From: Centroscyllium fabricii
Taxonomy: Eukaryota
DNA length: 64,000 nucleotides
Direction of reading: 5' to 3'
Assembly: GCA_051313645.2 (NCBI GenBank)
Contig: JBNRSN020000025.1
Span: 20,770,001-20,834,000, forward strand
Positions within the stretch are counted from its first letter, which is position 1, and the number at the start of each line of letters is the position of its first letter. Of this stretch, positions 11,416 through 55,168 are shown in pieces. Below the pieces are notes generated by a model, which was not told the origin of the DNA, made no database searches, and was given only the letters and a program-made list of their open reading frames with translations. A program made the translations under genes and the position numbers.

Positions 11416-11779
11416 CAGGTTGAGCACCGGTAATCTGGCACCCTCGGGACCAGGCCCATTGAAAATTCCGAACCACTGAAGGTTCGGGGGGAGCGCGCGG
11501 GTAGAACACTCCCCGGGGCCCGGAGCGCGCGGGTAGAACACTCCCCGGGGCCTGGAGCGCGCGGGTAGAACACTCCCCGGGAGGGAGCCCGGGGATAGAA
11601 CACTTACAAGACTTAAAAAAAGCAGCAACCCAAATGCCTTTGGCGCACGCCCACTCTTCGCGGGAAATGGTGGCGCCACCGAGCAGCTGCTCCGTAAACT
11701 GAAGACCGCCGGTTTCGATTTGTGCCGGACCACTGAAGGTGCCGGACCATTGGGTGCCGGATTACTGGTACTCAACCTG
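11416..11779 (+). mobile_element. Tc1/mariner-type MITE, family A (about 3 internal 32-bp units)
   Basis: TIRs CAGGTTGAGCACCGGTAATCTGGCACCC / GGGTGCCGGATTACTGGTACTCAACCTG, flanked by TA on both sides (11414-15, 11780-81). Homologous copies at 19473 and 39331. Confidence 0.9.
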
Positions 11780-28009: not shown

Positions 28010-29075
28010 GGGGGCTAAATTCGGCAGCACATGATTTCTGGCGCTAAAATTAGCGCCGAGGCGGCCGATATTAGCATTAGCGCCGTCGTTGCAGATTTTG
28101 CCGCTAATTCACGCCTTGCACAGCTTCCAGGCGGCCAATATCTTGCCGCTGTTTGCCGTTCCCGGGCACAGCGCTCCCTCACTAACTGCTTGCTTCCCCA
28201 TGACCTCTGCAGCCGATTAGGTCTTAAAGGGGAAGGAGAGCAGCATCTTTTCCTCCTCGCACTCTGATCAGCTGCCGATTGCGGGCCTCCCCCCCCCCCC
28301 TCCTCGCACTCTGATCAGCAGCCGATCTCCCACCCCCCCCCCCCCCCTCGCACTCTGATCAGCAGCCGATCTCCCTCCCCCCCCCCCTCCTCGCACTCTG
28401 ATCGGCTGCCAATCGCGGGCCACCCTCCCCCCTCTCCTCGCACTCTGATCAGCAGCCGATCTCCCACCCCCCCCCCTCGCACTCTGATCGGCTGCCAATC
28501 GCGGGCGGGCCACCCTCCCCCCCCCTCCTCGCACTCTGATCAGCAGCCGATCTCCCTCCCCCTCTCCTCGCACTCTGATCAGCTGCCGATCTCCCACCCC
28601 CCCTCCTCGCACTCTGATCAGCTGCCGATCTCCCTCCCCCACTCCTCGCACTCTGATCAGCTGCCGATCGCGGGCCTCCCTCCCCGCACTCTGATCAATT
28701 GGCCGATCGGGACGCCTCCCCCTTCCTTTAGCAACTGGCCGATCTCGGGCCGAAGAGGGAGGGTGGCCCTTTTAGCAGCGCTGCAGCGGCCACTCAAACC
28801 CGCTGCAGCGCTTGCAAAAGCTGCCGCTGATAGCGCGGGGGGCGGTGAAAAGGTGGTAAACCCAATGTCGGGCGCAGCCCGCCGGGCTGGCATTGCACAC
28901 GCATTGTCACGACGATTGGTGATCGCCAAGCGGCGCTGTGCTAACGTTTAGCGCCGGCGCTAAGCACAAGGCCAATTTAGCTCCCGGCGCTAATTTTGGT
29001 GCTAATTCGGCGCTGGCCCATTAGCGCACATTTTCAGCGCTGATGGGCTGGTGCTAAGCCGTCAATTTCGTGCCC
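28010..29075 (+). mobile_element. PIF/Harbinger-type MITE family C with expanded internal repeat
   Basis: GGGGGCTAAATT…AATTTCGTGCCC TIRs with ACA/ATA flanks and subterminal TAGCGC repeats. About 11 copies of CCTCGCACTCTGATC(A/G)GC… at 28250-28700. Homolog at 46393. Confidence 0.85.
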
Positions 29076-31239: not shown

Positions 31240-34200
31240 GGGGTAGATCTTGACTTTATGCGAAATTGTAAAACGGGCGATTGTGAATCGGCATCTCTCC
31301 CGATTTTCTGTGGCATTGGCTTCCATGGAAGTAAAAATCAGGAGAGATGTAAAATAGGCTGCTGACTATCGCCCACTTCACACTATCGCCCACTTCACAC
31401 TATCGCCCACTTCACACTATCGCCCACTTCACACTATCGCCCACTTCACACTATCGCCCACTTCACACTATCGCCCACTTCACACTATCGTCCACTTCAC
31501 ACTATCGCCCACTTCACACTATTGCCCACTTCACACTATCGCCCACTTCACACTATCGCCCACTTCACACTATCGCCCACTTCACACTATCGTCCACTTC
31601 ACACTATTGTCCACTTCACATTATCGCCCACTTTACACTATGGCACACTTCACACTATCGTCCACTTCACACTATCGCCCACTTCACACTATCGCTCACT
31701 TCACACTATCGCCCACTTCACACTATCGCCCACTTCACACTATCGCCCACTTCACAGTATCGTCCACTTCACACTATCGCCCACTTCACACTATCGCCCA
31801 CTTCACACTATCGCCCACTTCACACTATCGCCCACTTCACATTATCGTCCACTTCACACTATCGCCCACTTCACACTGTCGCCCACTTCACACTGTCGCC
31901 CACTTCACACTATCGTCCACTTCACACTATCGCCCACTTCACACTGTCGCTCACTTCACACTATCGCCCACTTCACACTATCGCCCACTTCACACTATCG
32001 CCCACTTCACACTATCGCCCACTTCACACTATCGCCCACTTCACATTATCGCCCACTTCACACTATCGCCCACTTCACACTATCGCCCACTTCACACTAT
32101 CGCCCACTTCACACTATCGCCCACTTCACACTATCGCCCACTTCACACTATCGCCCACTTCACACTATCGCCCGCTTCACACTGTCGCCCGCTTCACACT
32201 GTCGCCCACTTCACACTGTCGCCCACTTCACACTATCGCCCACTTCACACTATCGCCCACTTCACACTATCGCCCACTTCACACTATCGCCCACTTCACA
32301 CTATCGCCCACTTCACATTATCGCCCACTTCACATTATCGCCCACTTCACACTATCGCCCACTTCACACTATCGCCCACTTCACACTGTCGCCCACTTCA
32401 CACTGTCGCCCACTTCACACTGTCGCCCACTTCACACTGTCGCCCACTTCACACTGTCGCCCACTTCACACTATCGCCCACTTCACACTATCGCCCACTT
32501 CACACTATCGCCCACTTCACACTATCGCCCACTTCACATTATCGCCCACTTCACAATATCGCCCACTTCACAATATCGCCCACTTCACACTATCGCCCAC
32601 TTCACACTATCGCCCACTTCACACTATCGCCCACTTCACACTATCACCCACTTCACATTATCGCCCACTTCACACTATCGCCCACTTCACACTATCGCCC
32701 ACTTCACACTATCGCCCACTTCACACTATCGCCCACTTCACACTATCGCCCACTTCACACTATCGTCCACTTCACACTATTGTCCACTTCACATTATCGC
32801 CCACTTTACACTATGGCACACTTCACACTATCGTCCACTTCACACTATCGCCCACTTCACACTATCGCTCACTTCACACTATCGCTCACTTCACACTATC
32901 GCCCACTTCACACTATCGCCCACTTCACACTATCGCCCACTTCACAGTATCGTCCACTTCACACTATCGCCCACTTCACACTATCGCCCACTTCACACTA
33001 TCGCCCACTTCACACTATCGCCCACTTCACATTATCGTCCACTTCACACTATCGCCCACTTCACACTGTCGCCCGCTTCACACTGTCGCCCACTTCACAC
33101 TATCACCCACTTCACACTATCGTCCACTTCACACTATCGCCCACTTCACACTGTCGCTCACTTCACACTATCGCCCACTTCACACTATCGCCCACTTCAC
33201 ACTATCGCCCACTTCACACTATCGCCCACTTCACATTATCGCCCACTTCACACTATCGCCCACTTCACACTATCGCCCACTTCACACTATCGCCCACTTC
33301 ACACTATCGCCCACTTCACACTATCGCCCACTTCACACTATCGCCCACTTCACACTATCGCCCACTTCACACTATCGCCCACGTCACACTATCGCCCACT
33401 TCACACTATCGTCCACTTCACACTATCGTCCACTTCACACTATCGCCCACTTCACACTATCGCCCACTTCACACTATCGCCCACTTCACACTATCGCCCA
33501 CTTCACACTATCACCCACTTCACACCGTCGCCCACTTCACACCGTCGCCCACTTCACACCGTCGCCCACTTCACACCTTCGCCCACTTCACACCATCGCC
33601 CACTTCACACCATCGCCCACTTCACACCATCGCCCACTTCACACTATCGCCCACTTCACACTATCGCCCACTTCACACTATCACCCACTTCACACTATCG
33701 CCCACTTCACATTATCGCCCACTTCACACTATCACCCACTTCACACTATCGCCCACTTCACATTATCGCCCACTTCACATTATCGCCCACTTCACACTAT
33801 CGCCCACTTCACACTATCGCCCACTTCACACTATCACCCACTTCACACTATCGCCCACTTCACACTATCGCCCACTTCACACTATCGCCCACTTCACACT
33901 ATCGCCCGCTTCACACTATCGCCCGCTTCACACTATCGCCCGCTTCACACTATCGCGCACTTCACACTATCGCCCACTTCACACGGTCGCCCACTTCACA
34001 CTATCGCCCGCTTCACACTATCGCCCGCTTCACACTATCGCCCGCTTCACACTATCGCCCGCTTCACACTATCGCGCACTTCACACTATCGCCCACTTCA
34101 CACGGTCGCCCACTTCACACTGTCGCCCACTTCACACTATCACCCACTTCACACTATCGCCCACTTCACACTATCGCCCACTTCACACTATCATCCACTT

Positions 34201-36550
34201 CACACTATCACCCACTTCACAGTATCGCCCACTTCACACTATCGCCCACTTCACACTATCGCCCACTTCACACTGTCGCCCACTTCACACTATCGCCCAC
34301 TTCACACTATCGCCCACTTCACACTATCGCCCACTTCACACTATCACCCACTTCACACTATCACCCACTTCACATTATCGCCCACTTCACACTATCGCCC
34401 ACTTCACACTATCGCCCACTTCACACTATCGCCCACTTCACACTATCGCCCACTTCACACTATCGCCCACTTCACACTATCGCCCACTTCACACTATCGC
34501 CCACTTCACACTATCGCCCACTTCACACTATTGTCCACTTCACATTATCGCCCACTTTACACTATGGCACACTTCACACTATCGTCCACTTCACACTATC
34601 GCCCACTTCACACTATCGCTCACTTCACACTATCGCCCACTTCACACTATCGCCCACTTCACACTATCGCCCACTTCACACTATCGCCCACTTCACAGTA
34701 TCGTCCACTTCACACTATCGCCCACTTCACACTATCGCCCACTTCACACTATCGCCCACTTCACACTATCGTCCACTTCACACTGTCGCCCACTTCACAC
34801 TGTCGCCCACTTCACACTGTCGCCCAGTTCACACTATCACCCACTTCACACTATCGCCCACTTCACACTATCGCCCACTTCACACTATCGCCCACTTCAC
34901 ACTATCGCCCACTTCACACTATCGCCCACTTCACACTATCGCCCACTTCACACTATCGCCCACTTCACACTATCGCCCACTTCACACTATCGCCCACTTC
35001 ACACTATCGCCCACTTCACACTATCGCCCACTTCACACTATCGCCCACTTCACACTATCGCCCACTTCACACTATCGCCCACTTCACACTGTCGTCCACT
35101 TCACACTGTCGCCCACTTCACACTGTCGCCCACTTCACACTGTCGCCCACTTCACACCGTCGCCCACTTCACACCGTCGCCCACTTCACACCGTCGCCCA
35201 CTTCACACCGTCGCCCACTTCACACCTTCGCCCACTTCACACCATCGCCCACTTCACACCATCGCCCACTTCACACCATCGCCCACTTCACACTATCGCC
35301 CACTTCACACTATCGCCCACTTCACATTATCGCCCACTTCACACTATCGCCCACTTCACACTATCGCCCACTTCACACTATCACCCACTTCACACTATCG
35401 CCCACTTCACACTATCGCCCACTTCACACTATCGCCCACTTCACATTATCGCCCACTTCACACTATCGCCCACTTCACACTATCGCCCACTTCACACTAT
35501 CACCCACTTCACACTATCGCCCACTTCACACTATCGCCCACTTCACACTATCGCCCACTTCACACTATCGCCCACTTCACACTATCGCCCGCTTCACACT
35601 ATCGCGCACTTCACACTATCGCCCACTTCACACGGTCGCCCACTTCACACTGTCGCCCACTTCACACTATCGCCCACTTCACACTATCGCCCACTTCACA
35701 CTATCGCCCACTTCACACTATCGTCCACTTCACACTATCGCCCACTTCACATTATCGCCCACTTCACACTATCGCCCACTTCACACTATCGCCCACTTCA
35801 CACTGTCGCCCACTTCACACTATCGCCCACTTCACACTATCGCCCACTTCACACTATCGCCCACTTCACATTATCGCCCACTTCACAATATCGCCCACTT
35901 CACACTATCGCCCACTTCACACTATCGCCCACTTCACACTATCGCCCACTTCACACTATCACCCACTTCACACTATCACCCACTTCACACTATCGCCCAC
36001 TTCACACTATCGCCCACTTCACACTATCGCCCACTTCACACTATCGCCCACTTCACACTATCGCCCACTTCACACTATCGCCCACTTCACACTGTCGCCC
36101 ACTTCACACTATCGCCCACTTCACACTATCGCCCACTTCACACTATCGCCCACTTCACACTATCGCCCACTTCACACTATCGCCCACTTCACACTGTCGC
36201 CCACTTCACACTGTCGCCCACTTCACACTGTCGCCCACTTCACACTGTCGCCCACTTCACACTATCGCCCACTTCACACTGTCGCCCACTTCACACTGTC
36301 GCCCACTTCACACTGTCGGCCACTTCACACTGTCGCCCACTTCACACTGTCGCCCAGTTCACACTATCGCCCACTTCACACTATCGCCCACTTCACACTA
36401 TCGCCCACTTCACACTATCGCCCACTTCACACTATCGCCCACTTCACACTGTCGCCCACTTCACACTGTCGCCCACTTCACACTGTCGGCCACTTCACAC
36501 TGTCGCCCACTTCACACTATCGCCCACTTCACACTGGCAAGATCTATCCC
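31240..36550. mobile_element. Small MITE hosting a 5.2-kb minisatellite
   Basis: TIRs GGGGTAGATCTTG (31240-52) / CAAGATCTATCCC (36538-50), 12/13 match. Internal palindrome ATCTCTCCCGATTTT / AAAATCAGGAGAGAT. The flanks rejoin into one old SINE-like repeat. Confidence 0.75.
31365..36535. repeat. 17-bp minisatellite (ACTATCGCCCACTTCAC)n, about 304 copies
   Basis: Directly visible: 5171 bp / 17. Substitution variants only, with register preserved. Confidence 0.99.
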
Positions 36551-39330: not shown

Positions 39331-40261
39331 CAGGTTGAATACTTACAAGCCTTACAATCCAGCACCCTCGGGACCAGGCCGGTGCCGGACCACTGAAAAT
39401 TACGAACCACTGAAGGTTCGGGTAGAACGTGTGGGTAGAACACTCCACGGGGCCCGGAGCGCGCGGGTAGAACACTCCACGGGGCCCGGAGCGCGCGGGT
39501 AGAACACTCCACGGGGCCCGGAGCGCGCGGGTAGAACACTCCACGGGGCCCGGAGCGCGCGGGTAGAATACTCCCCGAGGCCCAGAGCGCGCGGGTAGAA
39601 TACTCCATGGGGCCCAGAGCACGCGGGTAGAATACTCCCCGGGGCCCAGAGCGCGCGGGTAGAACACTCCCCGGGGCCCGGAGCGCGCGGGTAGAACACT
39701 CCCCGAGGCCCAGAGCGTGCGGGTAGAATACTCCCCGAGGCCCAGAGCGCGCGGGTAGAATACTCCATGGGGCCCAGAGCACGCGGGTAGAACACTCCCC
39801 AGGGCCCGGAGCATGCGGGTAGAACACTCCCCGGGGCCCAGAGCGTGCGGGTAGAACACTCCCCGGGGCCCGGAGCGTGCGGGTAGAACACTCCCCGGGG
39901 CCCGGAGCGCATGGGTAGAACACTCCCCGGGGCCCGGAGCGTGCGGGTAGAACACTCCCCGGGGCCCGGAGCGTGCGGGTAGAACACTCCCCGGGGCCCG
40001 GAGCGTGCGGGTCGAACACTCCCCGTGGCCCGGAGCGCATGGGTAAAACACTCCCCAGGAGGGAGCCCGGGGATAGAACACTTACAAGCCTTAAAAAAAC
40101 AAACCCAAATGCCCGACGCCTTCAACGCTCGCCCACCCTTCGCAGGAAACGGTGGCGCCGCCGAGCGGCTGCTCCGCAAACCGAAGAGCACCAGTTTCGA
40201 TTCGTGCCGGACCACTGAAGGTGCCGGACCATTGGGTGCCGGATTACCGGTGCTCAACCTG
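39331..40261 (+). mobile_element. Tc1/mariner-type MITE family A with about 20 copies of a 32-bp internal unit
   Basis: Same arms as 11416. Unit GGGTAGAACACTCCCCGGGGCCCGGAGCGCGC is tandem from 39433 to about 40060. TA at 40262-63. Confidence 0.9.
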
Positions 40262-46392: not shown

Positions 46393-47162
46393 GGGGGCTA
46401 AATTCGTCAGCACACAATTTCTGGCGTTAAAATGGGCGCAACGCTAAAATTAGCGCAGAGGCGGGCGATATTGGCGTTGGCGCCGTTGTTGCAGATTTTG
46501 CCGCTAATTCACATCTTGCACGGTTTCCAGGCGGCCAATATCTTGCCGCTAATTGCCATTCCCGGGCGCAGCGCTCCCTCACTAACTGCTTGCTTCCCCA
46601 TGACCTCTGCAGCCGATTAGGTCTTAAAGGGGAAGCAGAGCAGCATCTTTTCCTCCCCGCTCTCTGATCAGCTGCTGATCGCCCGACCCCCCTCCTCGCA
46701 CTCTGATCAGCTGCCGATCTCCCTCCCCCTCCTCGCACTCTGATGAGCTGCTGATCGCGGACCTCCCTCCCCGCACTCTGATCAATTGGCCGATCGGGAC
46801 GCCTCCACCTTCCCTTAGCAACTGGCCGATCTCGGGCCGAAGAGGGAGGGTGGCCCTTTTAGCAGCGCTGCAGCGGCCACTCAAACCCGCTGCAGCGCTT
46901 GCAAAAGCTGGCGCTGATAGCGCGGGGGGCGGTGGAAAGGCGCTAAACCCAATATCGGGCGCAGCCCGCCGGGCGGGCATTGTACACGCATTGTCACGAC
47001 GATTGGTGATCGCCAAGTGGCGCTGCGCTAACGTTTAGCGCCGGCGCCAAGCACAAGGCCAATTTAGCGGCCGGCGCTAATTTTGAGACCGATTCGGCGC
47101 CGGCCCATTAGCGCCCATTTGCAGCGCTAATGGGCCGGCGCTAAGCCGACAATTTCGCGCCC
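46393..47162 (+). mobile_element. PIF/Harbinger-type MITE family C
   Basis: TIRs GGGGGCTAAATT / AATTTCGCGCCC with 3-bp TSD ATA (46390-92, 47163-65). About 4 internal repeat units. Confidence 0.88.
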
Positions 47163-48943: not shown

Positions 48944-49485
48944 GAACATAAGAACATAAGAAATAGGAGCAGGAGTAGGCCATTCGGCCCTTCGAGCCTG
49001 CTGCGCCATTCAATGAGATCATGGCTGATCATCCAAACCCAGCACCCTGTCCCTGCCTTGTCCCCATATCCCTCGATCCCTATCGAGCCTGCACGGGGAA
49101 ATGCGAGGTGATGCACTTCGGTAGGGCAAATAGGAAGAGGGAATATAGGGTCAACGGCAGGGTCCTGAGCGAAGCAGAGGAGCAAAGGGATCTGGGAGTA
49201 TATGTACACAGATCATTGAAGGCTGCCACCCAGGTGGACAAGGCAGTAAAAAAGGCCTATGGTGTATTGGCCTTCATCAACAGGGGAATAGAGTTTAAGA
49301 ACCGGGAGGTCATGCTACAGCTGTACAGGTCACTGGTGAGACCACACTTGGAGTACTGTGTGCAGTTCTGGGCACCGTACTACAGGAGGGATCATAGAAT
49401 CATAGAAGATAGGAGCAGGAGTAGGCCATTCAGCCCTTCGAGCCTGCTCCGCCATTCAATGAGATCATGGCTGATCTTTAGCAAG

Positions 49486-52365
49486 CTAGTACCCCGTCCC
49501 CGCCTTTTCTCCATAACCTTTAATCCCTTTAGCTTGAAGAAATATATCCAGTTCCCTCTTGAATATGTTTAATGAACTGGCCTCCACCGCCCTCTGTGGC
49601 AGGGAATTCCACAGGCCCACCACTCTCTGAGTGAAGAAATTCTTCCTCATGTCTGTCCTAAATGGTTTACCCCTTATCCTTAGACTGTGGCCCCTGGTTC
49701 TGGACTCCCCCGCCATTGGAAACATTCTCTCTGAATCTAACCTGTCCAGACCTTTCAGAATTTTATACGTCTCAATGAGATCGCCTCTCAATCTTCTAAA
49801 CTCCAATGAGTACAAGCCCAGACTAGACAATCTCTCCTCGTAGGTCATTCCTGCCATTCCAGGAATCAGCCTGGTGAAACGCCGCTGCACTCCTTCCATG
49901 GCAAGAACATCCTTCCTCAGGCGAGGCGACCAGAACTGTACACAGTACTCGAGGTGTGGTCTCACCAGTGCCTTGTACAGCTGCAGTAAGGTATCCTTAT
50001 TCCGATACTCGAACCCTCTTGATATGAAGGCCAACATACCATTTGCCTTCCTAACCGCCTGCTGCACCTGCGTGCTCGCTTTCAGCGACTGGTGCACAAG
50101 AACACCCAGGTCTCTCTGCACCTCCCCATCTCCCAATCTATTGCCATTTAAGTAGTAATCTGCCCTCCTGTTTTTGCCCCCAAAGTGGATAACCTCACAT
50201 TTATCCACATTATAGTGCATCTGCCATCTATCTGCCCAGTCCCCCAACTTATCCAAATCGCCCTGTAACTTCCTGACACCCTCTTCAGAGCCTGCCCCCC
50301 CTCCTAGTTTGGTGTCGTCCGCGAATTTGGAGATATTACATTCAATTCCCTGATCCAGATCATTAATATATATTGTAAACAGCTGAGGTCCCAGGACAGA
50401 CCCCTGCGGTACTCCACTAGTCACCGGCTGCCACCCAGAAAACGAGCCGTTAATTCCAACTCTCTGTTTTCTGTCTGCCAACCAGTTCTCTATCCACATC
50501 AAAACTTTGCCCCCAATCCCATGAGCCTTAATTTTACATGCTAATCTTTTATGTGGAACCTTATCGAAAGCTTTCTGGAAGTCAAGGTACACCACATCTA
50601 CTGGCTCTCCCCCATCTATTTTCCGAGTTACTTCCTCAAAGAATTCCAATAGATTAGTTAAACATGATTTACCTTTTGTAAACCCATGTTGACTCTGTCC
50701 GATCTCATCCCTACTTGTCAAATGCTCTGAGATTACATCCTTGATGATGGACTCGAGCATTTTGCCCACTACTGATGTAAGGCTTACTGGTCTATAATTC
50801 CCTGCTTTCTCTCTGCCCCCCTTTTTAAATAGTGGGGTAACATTAGCCACCCTCCAATCCGTGGGTACTGATCCAGAGTCTATTGAGTTCTGGAAAATGA
50901 TCCTTAATGCACCCTCTATTTCCGGGGCTACCTCTTTAAGTACCCTAGGATGTAGATTATCAGGCCCTGGGGATTTGTCGGCCTTCAATCCCTTCAACTT
51001 CCCCAAAACCATCTCCCTAGAGATACTGATATCTGTCAGCTCCTCCCTTGCATTGGACCCTATGTTCGCTGCTATCCCTGGGAGGTTGCTTGTGTCCTCC
51101 TTTGTGAAGACAGTACCAAAATATGAATTTAGTTGGTCTGCCATTTCTTTATTCCCCATTATATATTCCCCTGAATCGGACTGCAAGGGACCGACTTGGG
51201 ATTTTACCAATCTTTTCCTCTTGATGTACCTATAAAAGCTTTTGCAGTCAGTTTTTATGTTTGCCGCAAGCTTACATTCATAATCTATCTTCCCCCTCCT
51301 GATTAATCCCTTTGTCTTCCTTTGCTGTATCCTGAACTGCTCCCAATCTTCCGGCCTAGTACTTTTTTTGGCCAATTGATATGCCCATTTTTTGGATTTA
51401 ATGTTGTCCCTTATTTCCCTTGTTATCCACGGTTGAGTCACCTTTCTAGGTTTATTCTTATGCCAAACCGGTATGAACGAGTTCTGTATTTCTTCCATCC
51501 TATACTTGAATGCTTGCCATTGTCTATCCACATTCAATCCCCCCAGGAACACTGCCCAATCTATCTTGCTTAATTCCCTTCTCATACCTTCATAATTCCC
51601 TTTATTTAAATTCAGGACCTTAGTCTCTGAGTTGATCTTTTCACTTTCCATCTCAACTGAGAATTCGATCATATTATGATCGCTCCGACCCAAGGGGCCT
51701 CGTACAACGAGATTGTTAATTAGTCCCTTCTCATTGCACAATACCCAGTCTAAGATGGCCTGATCCCGAGTTGGTTCCTCGACATATTGGTCCAGATACC
51801 CATCCCGTAGACATTCTAGGAATTCCTCCTCCTCAGTATTTTTACTAACTTGGCTAGTCCAATCAATATGTAGATTAAAGTCGCCCATGACGACAGCTGT
51901 GCCCTTATCGCAAGCTTCTCTAATTTCCCTTTTTATGCCATCCCCCACCTCCATATTACTATTTGGAGGCCTGTATATAACTCCCACTAATGTTTTCCGC
52001 CCTTTACTATTTCTTAGTTCTACCCATATAGATTCCGTATCATCTGAGTTAATATCCTTCCTTTCAATTGCATTTATCCCCTCTTTCACCAGCAATGCCA
52101 CCCCACCTCCCTTTCTTTTGTGCCGATCCTTTCTGAATGTTGTATACCCCGGGATGTTGAGTTCCCAGCCTTGCACCCCCTGCAGCCATGTTTCCGTAAT
52201 TCCAATCAACTCATATTTGCTTACCTCTATTTCCACAGCTAGTTCATCCACCTTGTTCCTAATGCTTCTTGCATTAAGATACAAAGCCTTTAGGCTTGTT
52301 TTGATCACACTATTATGAATTTGTTTGGCCCTTTGTGTTTCTCTCCCTTGCTTATTGTTTCTCAC
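49486..52365 (-). CDS. CR1 ORF2: APE endonuclease + reverse transcriptase (frame open upstream to about 52460; no initiating AUG)
   Basis: APE motifs YLNARS, ITETW, YRPP, MGDFN, LDWVL, SDH; RT motifs YLDFQKAFDKV, GVPQGSVLGP, FADDTK. 959 codons without a stop. The annotated start is GTG. Confidence 0.95.
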   Translation of the reverse strand: MRNNKQGRETQRAKQIHNSVIKTSLKALYLNARSIRNKVDELAVEIEVSKYELIGITETWLQGVQGWELNIPGYTTFRKDRHKRKGGGVALLVKEGINAIERKDINSDDTESIWVELRNSKGRKTLVGVIYRPPNSNMEVGDGIKREIREACDKGTAVVMGDFNLHIDWTSQVSKNTEEEEFLECLRDGYLDQYVEEPTRDQAILDWVLCNEKGLINNLVVRGPLGRSDHNMIEFSVEMESEKINSETKVLNLNKGNYEGMRRELSKIDWAVFLGGLNVDRQWQAFKYRMEEIQNSFIPVWHKNKPRKVTQPWITREIRDNIKSKKWAYQLAKKSTRPEDWEQFRIQQRKTKGLIRRGKIDYECKLAANIKTDCKSFYRYIKRKRLVKSQVGPLQSDSGEYIMGNKEMADQLNSYFGTVFTKEDTSNLPGIAANIGSNAREELTDISISREMVLGKLKGLKADKSPGPDNLHPRVLKEVAPEIEGALRIIFQNSIDSGSVPTDWRVANVTPLFKKGGREKAGNYRPVSLTSVVGKMLESIIKDVISEHLTSRDEIGQSQHGFTKGKSCLTNLLEFFEEVTRKIDGGEPVDVVYLDFQKAFDKVPHKRLACKIKAHGIGGKVLMWIENWLADRKQRVGINGSFSGWQPVTSGVPQGSVLGPQLFTIYINDLDQGIECNISKFADDTKLGGGAGSEEGVRKLQGDLDKLGDWADRWQMHYNVDKCEVIHFGGKNRRADYYLNGNRLGDGEVQRDLGVLVHQSLKASTQVQQAVRKANGMLAFISRGFEYRNKDTLLQLYKALVRPHLEYCVQFWSPRLRKDVLAMEGVQRRFTRLIPGMAGMTYEERLSSLGLYSLEFRRLRGDLIETYKILKGLDRLDSERMFPMAGESRTRGHSLRIRGKPFRTDMRKNFFTQRVVGLWNSLPQRAVEASSLNIFKRELDIFLQAKGIKGYGEKAGTGY

Positions 52366-52436
52366 CTTCCTACCATTTGTTTCTGGCTTCCTATGACCTC
52401 CCTCTTTTCCACTACCTATCCCAACCCCCTGCCAAG

Positions 52437-53387
52437 TTAGTTTAAACCCTCCCCAACCATGCTAGCAAACCTCCCCGCCAGGATATTGGTCCCCCTCCGG
52501 TTAAGGTGGAGACCGTCGTCCCTATACCAGTCCCACCTTTCCCAGAAACAGGGCCAGTTATCCAGGAAACTAAAGCCCTCCCTCCTGCACCAACTCTTGA
52601 GCCACGTATTAAGCTGCTCTATCCTTCTATTCCTATACTCACTAAATCGTGGCACAGGGAGTAATCCAGAGATTACAACCTTTGAGGTCCTGCACTTTAA
52701 TTTTCTGCCTAGCTCCCTGAATTCTTGTTGCAGGACCTCATCCCTCTTTTTACCTATGTCGTTGATTCCTATGTGTACAACGACCTCTGGCTGGTTTCCC
52801 TCCCTTTTCAGGATGTCCTGCAGCCGTTCTGTGACATCCTTGACCCTGGCACCAGGGAGGCAACAGACCATCCTGGAGTCACGTCTACGGCCACAGAAAC
52901 GCCTATCTGCTCTCCTTACGATAGAGTCCCCTACCACTATTGCTCTCTCATGCCTTTTCCCCCCCAGCTGAACAGCAGAAGCAACCCCAGTGCCCGGAGT
53001 TTGGCCACTGCTGCTTTCCCCTGGTAGGTCCCCCCCCCCAACAGTATCCAAAGCGGTATACTTGTTCGTGAGGGGGATGACCACAGAGGTTTCCTGCTCT
53101 ACCTGCCTGGCCCTACTGTTCTTTCTGATGGTCACCCATTCCCCTTCTGCCTGCACACCCTTAGCCTGCGGTGTGACCAGCTCACTGTATGAGTAATCCA
53201 CGCTCCCCTCAGCTTCGTGAATGCTCCCTAACCCATCCACCCTCAGTTCCAGTGCCGCAATGCGGTCAGTCAGTAACTGAAGGTGGACGCATTTCCCGCA
53301 CACATGGTCACCAGGGGCTCCAATGGTGTCCCTGGCTTCCCATATGTGGCAGGAGGAGCAAAGCACGGCACCATGCTGCACTGACAT
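52437..53387 (-). CDS. CR1 ORF1: C4 zinc finger, leucine zipper and SGNH/GDSL esterase domain
   Basis: CSSC…CGKC, heptad LLTDRIAALELRVDGL, SGNH blocks VVGDS, PGA, HIGIND, DGLHLN. 316 aa with an ATG start. Confidence 0.92.
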   Translation of the reverse strand: MSVQHGAVLCSSCHIWEARDTIGAPGDHVCGKCVHLQLLTDRIAALELRVDGLGSIHEAEGSVDYSYSELVTPQAKGVQAEGEWVTIRKNSRARQVEQETSVVIPLTNKYTALDTVGGGDLPGESSSGQTPGTGVASAVQLGGKRHERAIVVGDSIVRRADRRFCGRRRDSRMVCCLPGARVKDVTERLQDILKREGNQPEVVVHIGINDIGKKRDEVLQQEFRELGRKLKCRTSKVVISGLLPVPRFSEYRNRRIEQLNTWLKSWCRREGFSFLDNWPCFWERWDWYRDDGLHLNRRGTNILAGRFASMVGEGLN

Positions 53388-53812
53388 GACTTACCCCACT
53401 AATTACTTTTACAAAAAATTAACACCCCAAAAAAACAAGATATATACTAGGGTGCTAGTCTATCAGAAGTCCCCGTTATACCACAGAGACCTCAGAAAAA
53501 TAAATAAATAAAAATAAATAAATCACTTACCCTGCTTGCCTTTATAGCCGCCGCCTCCTGTTGTCTCCTCCTAGTACCGTCCCGCTGCCTGCTCCTGAAA
53601 AGAAAGACCCGCGAAAAACTCCTGCCCTGGTCCTGCTGCTGCCACCGACTGCTACCTCTGTCCAGGAGCCCCTTCCACTCACGTTCAGTCTCTGAAAATA
53701 ATCAATAAATCACCTACCTTTTTTTCAAAATTCTCTCAACCCCTAAAGGTTAGAGGAGGTGGAAGGGTGGGAGACACTAGTGTAGTGTCTCGGGTTTAGC
53801 AACTGCTCCACC

Positions 53813-53846
53813 TATATACGGGTTCCAATTGATTTGCCCCGCCCCC
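53813..53846 (-). promoter_or_regulatory. Candidate internal pol II promoter of the CR1 (GC box, CCAAT, TATA)
   Basis: Sense-strand order GGGGGCGGGGC (53846-36), ATTGG (53829-25), TATATA (53818-13). Confidence 0.45.
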
Positions 53847-53882
53847 TGGCTTTGAAAAAAGCCCGCGCTGCCGCTGTGTGAA

Positions 53883-54117
53883 GCCCGCTGCTCTCGCTCC
53901 AAGTCCCGCTCCCGGGTCTGGTCTCTGCCGCCGCCGCTGCTCCTTTTGGAGCCCGCTGCTCTCGCTCCAAGTCCCGCTCCCGGGTCTGGTCTCTGCCGCC
54001 GCCGCTGCTCCTTTTGGAGCCCGCTGCTCTCGCTCCAAGTCCCGCTCCCGGGTCTGGTCTCTGCCGCTGCCGCTGCTCCTTTTGGAGCCCGCTGCTCTCG
54101 CTCCAAGTCCCGCTCCC
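53883..54117 (-). repeat. 68-bp CpG-rich tandem monomers (about 3.5 copies) at the CR1 5' end
   Basis: Units start at 53883, 53951, 54019 and 54087 and are nearly identical. Confidence 0.95.
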
Positions 54118-55168
54118 GGGATGTGGAGGCGTTGGAGAGGGTGCAGAAGAGATTCACCAGGATGCTGCCGGGAATGGGGGGAAAGTCGTACGAGGAGAGG
54201 TTGAGGGAGCTGGGACTCTTCTCCCTGGAACGGAGAAGGAAGATGGGGGACTTAATAGAGATGTTTAAAATGATGAAGGGGATCGATAGAGTAAACGTGC
54301 AGAGACTGTTTCCCCGGGTGGGAAGAACGACAACAAGAGGGCACGAGCACAAGATTCAAGGAGGAAGATTCAGAAGGGATGGCAGGGGCAAGTTCTTTAC
54401 ACAGAGAGTGGTCGGGGAATGGAATAGGCTACCATCTGAAATAGTGGATGTGGACAGTCTGGGTGCTTTTAAAAGGATGATAGATAGGTACATGGAGGGG
54501 AAGGAAGAGTAGGGGGGACCGGAAAAATCAGAGACGGACTAAGCGCGGCACTACACTGAGGGCCCAAGGGCCTGTACAGTGCTGTATGTTCTGTGTTCTA
54601 TATCCCACCCTATCCCCGTAACCCCACACATTCAATCCCCCTGACACTAAGGGTCAATTTATCATGGCCAATCAACCTAACCCGCACATCTTTGGACTGT
54701 GGGAGGAAACCGGAGCACCCGGAGGAAACCCGCGCAGACACGGGGAGAATGTGCAAACTCCACACAGATAGTCACCCGAGGCTGGATTTGAACCCGGGTC
54801 TCTAGTGCTGTGAGGCAACAGTGCTAACCACTATGCCACCGTGCCGCCCTGAAGTGAACACAGGTAAGATTATTAATTGTATCATATGCACAAGAAATTG
54901 TTTCTGGTGTTGTCCAAGATTAGTTGATGACTAGTAAGGATTTTATTTAATACAAGTTAGCGACAAAGTTGGGAGAGAGCCTTCAGAAACTCTCTCCACA
55001 GAGTCACCTAGTGGCCAGAGCCTGCAACTACACCGTGACACTTTAATGGGAAATGTTGACAGAAAAGCGACTAAACATCACACTAGGAAGTACGGTCTGT
55101 GAACAAGGGAGTGTGTGTCTTTTGCAAGATTATATATGAATTCCCTGTTTGCTTCTGAAAACTATAAT

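Follow-up and report, generated by a model that had tools for sequence, protein, structure and literature searches.

Codon-level conservation of a slippery heptamer at the ORF1-ORF2 junction of CR1 retrotransposons, and a naturally fused sister lineage, point to expression of ORF2 by −1 ribosomal frameshifting

The DNA stretch of 64,000 nucleotides from Centroscyllium fabricii that was analyzed here (contig JBNRSN020000025.1, positions 20,770,001 to 20,834,000 of the forward strand; referred to as the window) contains an intact long interspersed nuclear element (LINE) of the CR1 type on its minus strand (about 54120-49393, 4.7 kb). The 5′ end of the element consists of a 68-nt unit in tandem (3.5 copies, 53882-54120), followed by the remainder of the 5′ untranslated region (UTR; 53388-53881), in which words resembling splice donors occur near 53719, 53531 and 53395, two of the three within a 22-nt direct repeat. 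The first open reading frame (ORF1, 52437-53387, ATG at 53387, 316 amino acids) encodes an N-terminal, zinc-finger-like Cys cluster, whose cysteines are near-invariant in the ORF1 alignment A1, and an SGNH/GDSL esterase (Pfam PF13472, E 1e-15); the profile of A1 matches the ORF1 esterase of ZfL2-1 (4C1B, E 5e-43). Taken from the −1 slip onward, ORF2 (49486-52440, first in-frame ATG at 51954) comprises an APE endonuclease and a reverse transcriptase (Pfam PF03372, PF14529, PF00078). CR1 LINEs carry a 3′ hairpin and short tail repeats and have no poly(A); here, the 3′ UTR (49393-49485) shows a terminal hairpin and TTCTATG-type tail repeats and is bordered by a candidate 5-bp target-site duplication (49388-49392, partner copy at 54118-54122). 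The canonical features of a vertebrate CR1 (endonuclease and reverse transcriptase in ORF2, Cys cluster and esterase in ORF1, 3′ hairpin and tail repeats) are thus all present, and ORF1 matches, with sharks and rays as the closest named ones, and published CR1 rows agree on this identity. The host site is an older CR1 fragment on the plus strand (ORF2 matches at 49099-49392, amino acids 747-844, and at 54120-54494, amino acids 844-968). Since the best 40 of 1,239 candidates match at about 100% over 601 bases, the family of the element is young; the identical junction was present in 30 of 30 fetched loci of this family, which argues against an assembly error.

The 3′ end of ORF1 reads GAG GGT TTA AAC TAA on the minus strand: Its final two codons (Leu-Asn) form the slippery heptamer U_UUA_AAC (52446-52440) in X_XXY_YYZ phase with the zero frame, and the UAA stop codon (52439-52437) follows immediately. 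In the −1 frame, no stop codon occurs between 52461 and 49486 (991 codons from stop to stop); upstream, a TAG (52464-52462) closes the frame only five codons before the TTT of the heptamer, so that ORF2 cannot start further upstream. Behind the heptamer, a linker of 53 codons without AUG (52282-52440) runs into the endonuclease motif YLNARS, and the first ATG of this frame (51954, residue 170) lies beyond the motifs YLNARS, TETW and YRPP. A −1 slip would yield an ORF1-ORF2 fusion of 1,301 amino acids. A conserved G tract of the form GG-N2-GGGGG-N2-GGG (52420-52433), a candidate stimulator, begins 6 nt 3′ of the heptamer. An earlier note on this DNA had described the in-phase heptamer with the stop codon directly behind it, the −1 frame closed upstream by a UAG and open into the endonuclease, the first ORF2 AUG behind the three motifs, a fusion of about 1300 residues and the G-rich run 6 nt downstream, and all of these statements and coordinates hold; it missed a second in-phase heptamer, G_GGU_UUA (52449-52443), that overlaps the first one and is family-specific (GGT before TTA in only 7 of 31 family representatives). 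The word TTTAAAC by itself is common, with 23 occurrences on both strands of the window; the expected probability of any canonical heptamer (XXX-AAA/UUU-notG) at a fixed site directly before the stop codon is about 0.002.

Further copies in this genome were gathered by patterns on the esterase motif DGLHL, approximately 70 nt upstream of the junction and blind to it; the sample also includes 30 loci found with the junction inside the query, and 32 of 169 loci belong to the window's own family. Among the 170 loci collected, 169 were anchored on DGLHL and 127 had a stop codon at codon 26-29. The earlier note had proposed a comparison of the junction across other CR1 copies as a check of its reading: TTTAAAC stood at the ORF1 end in 111 of the 127 loci with a normally placed stop (GTTAAAC in three), and of the 95 loci in which the endonuclease was reached without a stop, 91 had it in the −1 frame and 41 had no Met ahead of it. 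The −1 phase is maintained over linkers of 31-64 codons (39, 41, 48, 53, 56, 62, 63 and 64 codons in families of this genome), and at least 21,739 copies in this genome carry one junction pattern. In the family of L260, L264, L268, L274 and related loci, TTA AAC is immediately preceded by an unstable G run, and some copies read G_TTA_AAC.

Conservation at the codon level was compared in 31 family representatives (18 from this genome and 13 from metagenome data, mean nucleotide identity 56%), which were hand-picked after viewing the junctions, decayed copies (e.g. L077, L084, L087, L107 and L109) being excluded. The Leu codon is TTA in 29/29 (background 12%) and the Asn codon AAC in 31/31 (background 44%), and a U precedes TTA AAC in 29/31 across varied residues (background of third-base T 24%), while four to six codons are in use at other invariant Leu and Gly residues of this tail; the stop codon itself varies (UAA 15, UAG 15, UGA 1). 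The site is conserved at synonymous positions, as demanded of a frameshift signal, and the heptamer at the ORF1 end is not a product of chance. In one distant locus (L094, 545-1521), an ORF1 with a PHD-like Cys cluster and an esterase ends in G_GGA_AAC UAG with a G5 run in register; the contig stops before ORF2. G_GGA_AAC is named among the most shifty heptamers in a passage of PMC5009743, and L094 would represent a swap to another shifty heptamer under retention of the XXXYYYZ pattern.

In other vertebrates, 120 of the 141 ORF1 homologues found were examined: 94 of these end 20-30 amino acids after the esterase motif, with a C-terminal Leu-Asn in 90 of the 94 (proteins from sharks, rays, a teleost, frogs, turtles, lizards and birds). 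The residue before Leu-Asn has 11 identities, and Lys, Gln, Glu, Met and Trp are rare at this position (3/81 versus 137/729, Fisher p 2e-4, the tails not being independent), which fits a constraint for U since the codons of these residues cannot end in U. Out of 80 metagenome loci, 20 vertebrate-like or Leu-Asn-type loci reaching the ORF1 end were used; 17 had a stop codon, and 12 of the 17 end in TTTAAAC. Among 44 word matches in the part of the PMC13343379 supplement covered, at least 18 lie, on visual inspection, at an apparent ORF1 end, the rows concerned bearing the codes AllMis, CroPor, PogVit, AquCat, LatCha, AmiCal, AldAff, CalMil, HypSab, PriPec, ScyCan and SquAca, which are read as crocodilians, lizard, frog, coelacanth, bony fish, chimaera, rays and sharks; this search selects for the word and therefore shows breadth only and gives no denominator. 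Fused ORF1-ORF2 proteins with a reverse transcriptase domain were not among the five matches in the protein collection, and the viral and prokaryotic collections gave weak esterase matches only. One ORF1 homologue with 62% identity (P0007) carries the source label Pseudomonas aeruginosa; the record probably holds vertebrate DNA.

The two frames have been joined permanently in a sub-lineage of one family in this genome (loci L193-L217, L281-L330 and L351-L378), in which one additional base at the slip site connects ORF1 to ORF2; such a sister lineage, fused at the slip site by a one-base insertion, is new here. The fused copies comprise 862 of a T form and 192 of an A form (at least 1,054) versus 2,845 unfused sisters (exact counts), compared with 26 such insertions versus 21,739 in the other families. 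The junction of the T form, RALN-LISGG, equals the peptide predicted from a −1 slip. In 40 full-length fetches, the median divergence from the subfamily majority was 3.1% for unfused (n=12), 1.5% for A (n=8) and 0.9% for T copies (n=20), the fused lineage being younger than its unfused sisters, and in the tree the T form is nested within A and A within the unfused copies. Two copies depart from this nesting: L376, which probably arose by an independent insertion, and L362, which is 14% diverged and probably chimeric. Four of 20 T copies, and none of eight A copies, remain open for 993-1,002 codons beyond the junction, and L354 consists of a single open frame of 1,317 codons. Between the A and T forms, ORF2 differs by 18 synonymous and 10 non-synonymous substitutions (ratio of non-synonymous to synonymous change, pN/pS, 0.15, p 9e-7) and ORF1 by 8 and 11, respectively (pN/pS 0.40, p 0.05); within T, variants of ORF2 that are shared between copies have a lower pN/pS than private ones (0.25 versus 0.56, p 0.005). 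The substitution pattern of ORF2 indicates that endonuclease and reverse transcriptase stayed under purifying selection in elements without the ORF1 stop codon. The fused lineage thus likely kept jumping, and we infer from these comparisons that a fusion protein can drive transposition. The XXXYYYZ pattern is retained in the fused copies, where a −1 slip would end after two residues; these copies were selected by a pattern containing the heptamer letters, and its retention is therefore not independent.

The G tract follows the heptamer with GG at +7, G5 at +11 and G3 at +18, and constitutes the G4Hunter peak of 600 nt (mean 1.55 at +1 to +20 versus at most 0.80 outside). Its Gly codons are GGG in 26/28 and 20/20 cases versus 38% in the background. 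A two-tier G-quadruplex pattern is present in 17 of 27 families versus 11% of 719 background windows, a three-tier one would be possible in only two of the 27, and RNAfold puts a G-quadruplex at the tract in the window family; such a structure may form in the window family but not in general. Binding of a protein is an equal candidate for the function of the tract, and a PCBP-bound tract is described for arteriviruses in a passage of PMC5009743. No match to the junction was obtained in Rfam at E 5. A 16-nt inverted repeat (52431-52446 and 51839-51854) pairs the slip site of the window element with an endonuclease stretch about 585 nt downstream; this long-range pairing is not conserved (window family z −5.2, next best of 19 families −2.3). 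The G-rich stretch 52420-52436 is similar to the G-rich arm of amniote CR1 3′ UTRs, and it pairs with the tail of its own element no better than the controls do. A pairing of G tract and 3′ tail as a general feature was not supported in the nine of 28 elements whose tail lies as far away as expected, with z values of +0.4 to −1.3 and equal or better pairing in 21-131 of about 1,050-1,120 windows; amniote-type junctions combined with the amniote tail motif displayed a weak pairing trend (mean z −1.6).

Alongside the observed junction layout, the conservation at the RNA level and the spread of the fused lineage, it is likely from these sequence comparisons that CR1 ORF2 is expressed by −1 ribosomal frameshifting at U_UUA_AAC as an ORF1-ORF2 fusion. 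A fraction of the ribosomes would slip back by one base at the heptamer, where tRNA-Leu and tRNA-Asn would re-pair from UUA AAC to UUU AAA, yielding ...EGLN-LTWQG... in the window element; non-slipping ribosomes would terminate immediately and release the ORF1 protein, and the slip rate would set the ratio of ORF1 to ORF2 protein in a gag-pol-like manner. The predicted fusion of approximately 1,300 residues would unite zinc finger, esterase, endonuclease and reverse transcriptase. In the least certain step, the G tract would lie at the mRNA entry channel, given its position 7-20 nt downstream of the heptamer, and likely stimulate the slip, as a weak G-quadruplex or a protein-binding site rather than as a conserved stem-loop.

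Several observations weigh against this interpretation. The 31 representatives were picked after viewing and share common descent, which makes them less independent than their counts suggest. TTTAAAC is absent in 16/127 genome loci and 5/17 metagenome loci, and 42 of 169 loci have no stop codon at the expected place; most of these look like decayed copies, but three genome copies have G_TTA_AAC. The frameshift and fusion part of the mechanism given in the earlier note is well supported by comparison, whereas its G-quadruplex stimulator could not be established: 10 of 27 family representatives are without four spaced GG runs. A conserved downstream stem-loop was not found either (27 families, mean z 0.04; pseudoknots were outside the scope of this search). 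The fused lineage shows that a fusion works, not that ribosomes slip in unfused elements, and four Met codons lie in frame in its linker, ahead of the endonuclease. Moreover, its A form gave way to a form restoring Asn from Lys; part of the Leu-Asn conservation may hence act on the protein. Finally, an in-frame ATG follows the stop codon at a distance of 3-9 nt in 7 of the 11 amniote-type representatives, so that reinitiation may be at work in these families or in all.

According to this last alternative, ribosomes would terminate at the UAA and resume translation in the −1 frame at an AUG or another codon close by, releasing a free ORF2 protein, with the heptamer and the G tract holding or positioning the ribosome. 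Translation of ORF2 in L1 is reportedly AUG-independent. A passage of PMC3894237 describes a UAAUG coupling in SART1 and calls the initiation of ORF2 an open question. In this genome, though, an ATG within 10 nt of the stop codon occurs in none of the 18 representatives, and nine of the 18 are without any in-frame ATG, CTG, GTG, TTG or ACG from −30 to +45; the GUG at 52365, which the earlier note had considered as an alternative start, is in frame in the window but not conserved across families. Reinitiation further leaves unexplained the canonical X_XXY_YYZ phase, the swap to G_GGA_AAC and the success of the stop-less fused lineage; it is unlikely as the general mechanism, and it may serve as a second route in amniote-type families.

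The remaining explanations have to account for the same codons. Production of ORF2 from a spliced RNA, with a donor in the 5′ UTR and an acceptor at the junction, could draw on the three donor-like words and on the CTAAC followed by CAG at the window-family junction; this CAG is, however, only about 9 nt from the CTAAC and has no pyrimidine tract, other families have AAG, AGT or GGG instead, and splicing would still give the window family no start codon. No joint of 5′ UTR and ORF2 was present among the matches listed in four contig sets, one of them guessed to be RNA, although contigs cannot show absence. Transcriptional slippage at the T and A runs would have to occur on T3/A3, far below the 9-nt runs cited for bacteria in a passage of PMC5009743, and altered RNA by either process is very improbable. 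Scarcely credible is a junction kept only for a Leu-Asn at the esterase end and an ordinary Gly-rich linker, with the codons merely inherited: The reversion from Lys to Asn in the fused lineage accords with it, whereas the heptamer codons are fixed when other invariant residues use varied codons, the Gly codons of the tract depart from the background as given above, and L094 has Gly in place of Leu with the XXXYYYZ pattern retained.

Recoding may extend beyond the elements with a heptamer. The 12 distant esterase-type loci at hand, several of them closely related to each other, have UGA-C at the ORF1 end in 11 cases, and UGA-C is a leaky stop context. In nine of the 12 (L098, L103, L111, L122, L126, L127, L134, L137 and L140, the candidate readthrough loci), the endonuclease lies in frame 0 behind the UGA and is open from the ORF1 stop codon; one is broken and two gave no match. 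An AUGA stop-start arrangement was rejected for these relatives, the endonuclease being in frame 0. The comparison suggests stop readthrough, and hence fusion again; fusion by recoding would then be a design common to esterase-type elements. As a tentative extension, in which we place limited confidence, esterase-type CR1 elements across animals could make a Gag-Pol-like fusion by recoding, with a heptamer fixed since early jawed vertebrates, readthrough in distant relatives, a G tract that serves, as a G-quadruplex or bound by protein, as a natural stimulator other than a pseudoknot, and one lineage that reversed the switch by one inserted base so that fusion became the default product.

Other repeats in the window are a satellite at 31365-36535 (17-nt unit, 304 copies, 95% matches, strong strand skew) and two minisatellites with units of 32 nt (11489-11604 and 39433-40056) and 37-39 nt (28252-28709 and 46652-46795).

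The window element shares esterase ORF1, endonuclease-reverse transcriptase ORF2, 3′ hairpin and tail repeats with canonical vertebrate CR1 elements including ZfL2-1 (parts of PMC13343379, PMC4316615 and PMC3905857), which are, unlike here, described as having two separate ORFs; the term frameshift had no match in the main text of these three as far as it was covered, and denotes broken copies or alignment in the passages found of PMC4255032 and PMC9004415. No report of CR1 frameshifting was found in the literature searched, which excluded the original 1997 CR1 papers and Repbase/Dfam notes. The 1997 turtle CR1 paper is said to describe a short overlap of ORF1 and ORF2, so that an earlier suggestion of frameshifting is possible. 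In most vertebrate species, the dominant retrotransposons belong to the CR1 group according to a passage of PMC13343379, and the translation of ORF2 in two-ORF LINEs is called an open question in PMC3894237 (in part), where reinitiation, internal ribosome entry and 2A are listed as routes; the fixed heptamer renders this question testable with a 100-nt cassette, for which the fused lineage is a ready natural control. SART1 and L1 share with CR1 the problem of low-level ORF2 expression from a bicistronic LINE RNA, and make free ORF2 protein by reinitiation (PMC3894237, same part), whereas the window element has no AUG available and a fusion is predicted; an AUG overlapping or adjoining the ORF1 stop codon as in SART1 is absent in the window family, and in 18/18 genome representatives none lies within 10 nt. 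The only non-LTR (long terminal repeat) element for which frameshifting is invoked in the passage found of PMC5009743 is HeT-A of Drosophila; unlike in CR1, its shift lies within the gag gene, and HeT-A is without a reverse transcriptase. For TRE5-A of Dictyostelium, another non-LTR element, the texts consulted go no further than overlapping ORFs and do not speak of frameshifting.

Frameshifting by −1 on U_UUA_AAC is textbook knowledge in viruses. The heptamer ranks among the most shifty ones on mammalian ribosomes, and natural G-quadruplex stimulators of frameshifting were not known as of 2016 (both from passages of PMC5009743), which makes the G tract a candidate stimulator of a new kind. 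If the proposed mechanism is correct, the enzyme of CR1 transposition bears a zinc finger and a lipid-related esterase at its N-terminus, ORF2 annotations starting at an internal Met are truncated, and LINEs and LTR elements share the gag-pol strategy. In reversing polarity, with the long product in frame 0, the fused lineage bears a formal parallel, and no more than that, to the tau and gamma products of dnaX (passage in PMC5009743). A close likeness in layout is to retroviral gag-pol and to coronavirus 1a/1b (U_UUA_AAC in infectious bronchitis virus): The same heptamer, a structural protein first, a polymerase in the −1 frame and, as predicted here, a fusion at low level. In contrast to these viruses, CR1 is a non-LTR retrotransposon that places the stop codon directly behind the heptamer and follows it with a conserved G tract in lieu of a detectable conserved stem-loop, the search for which did not extend to pseudoknots.

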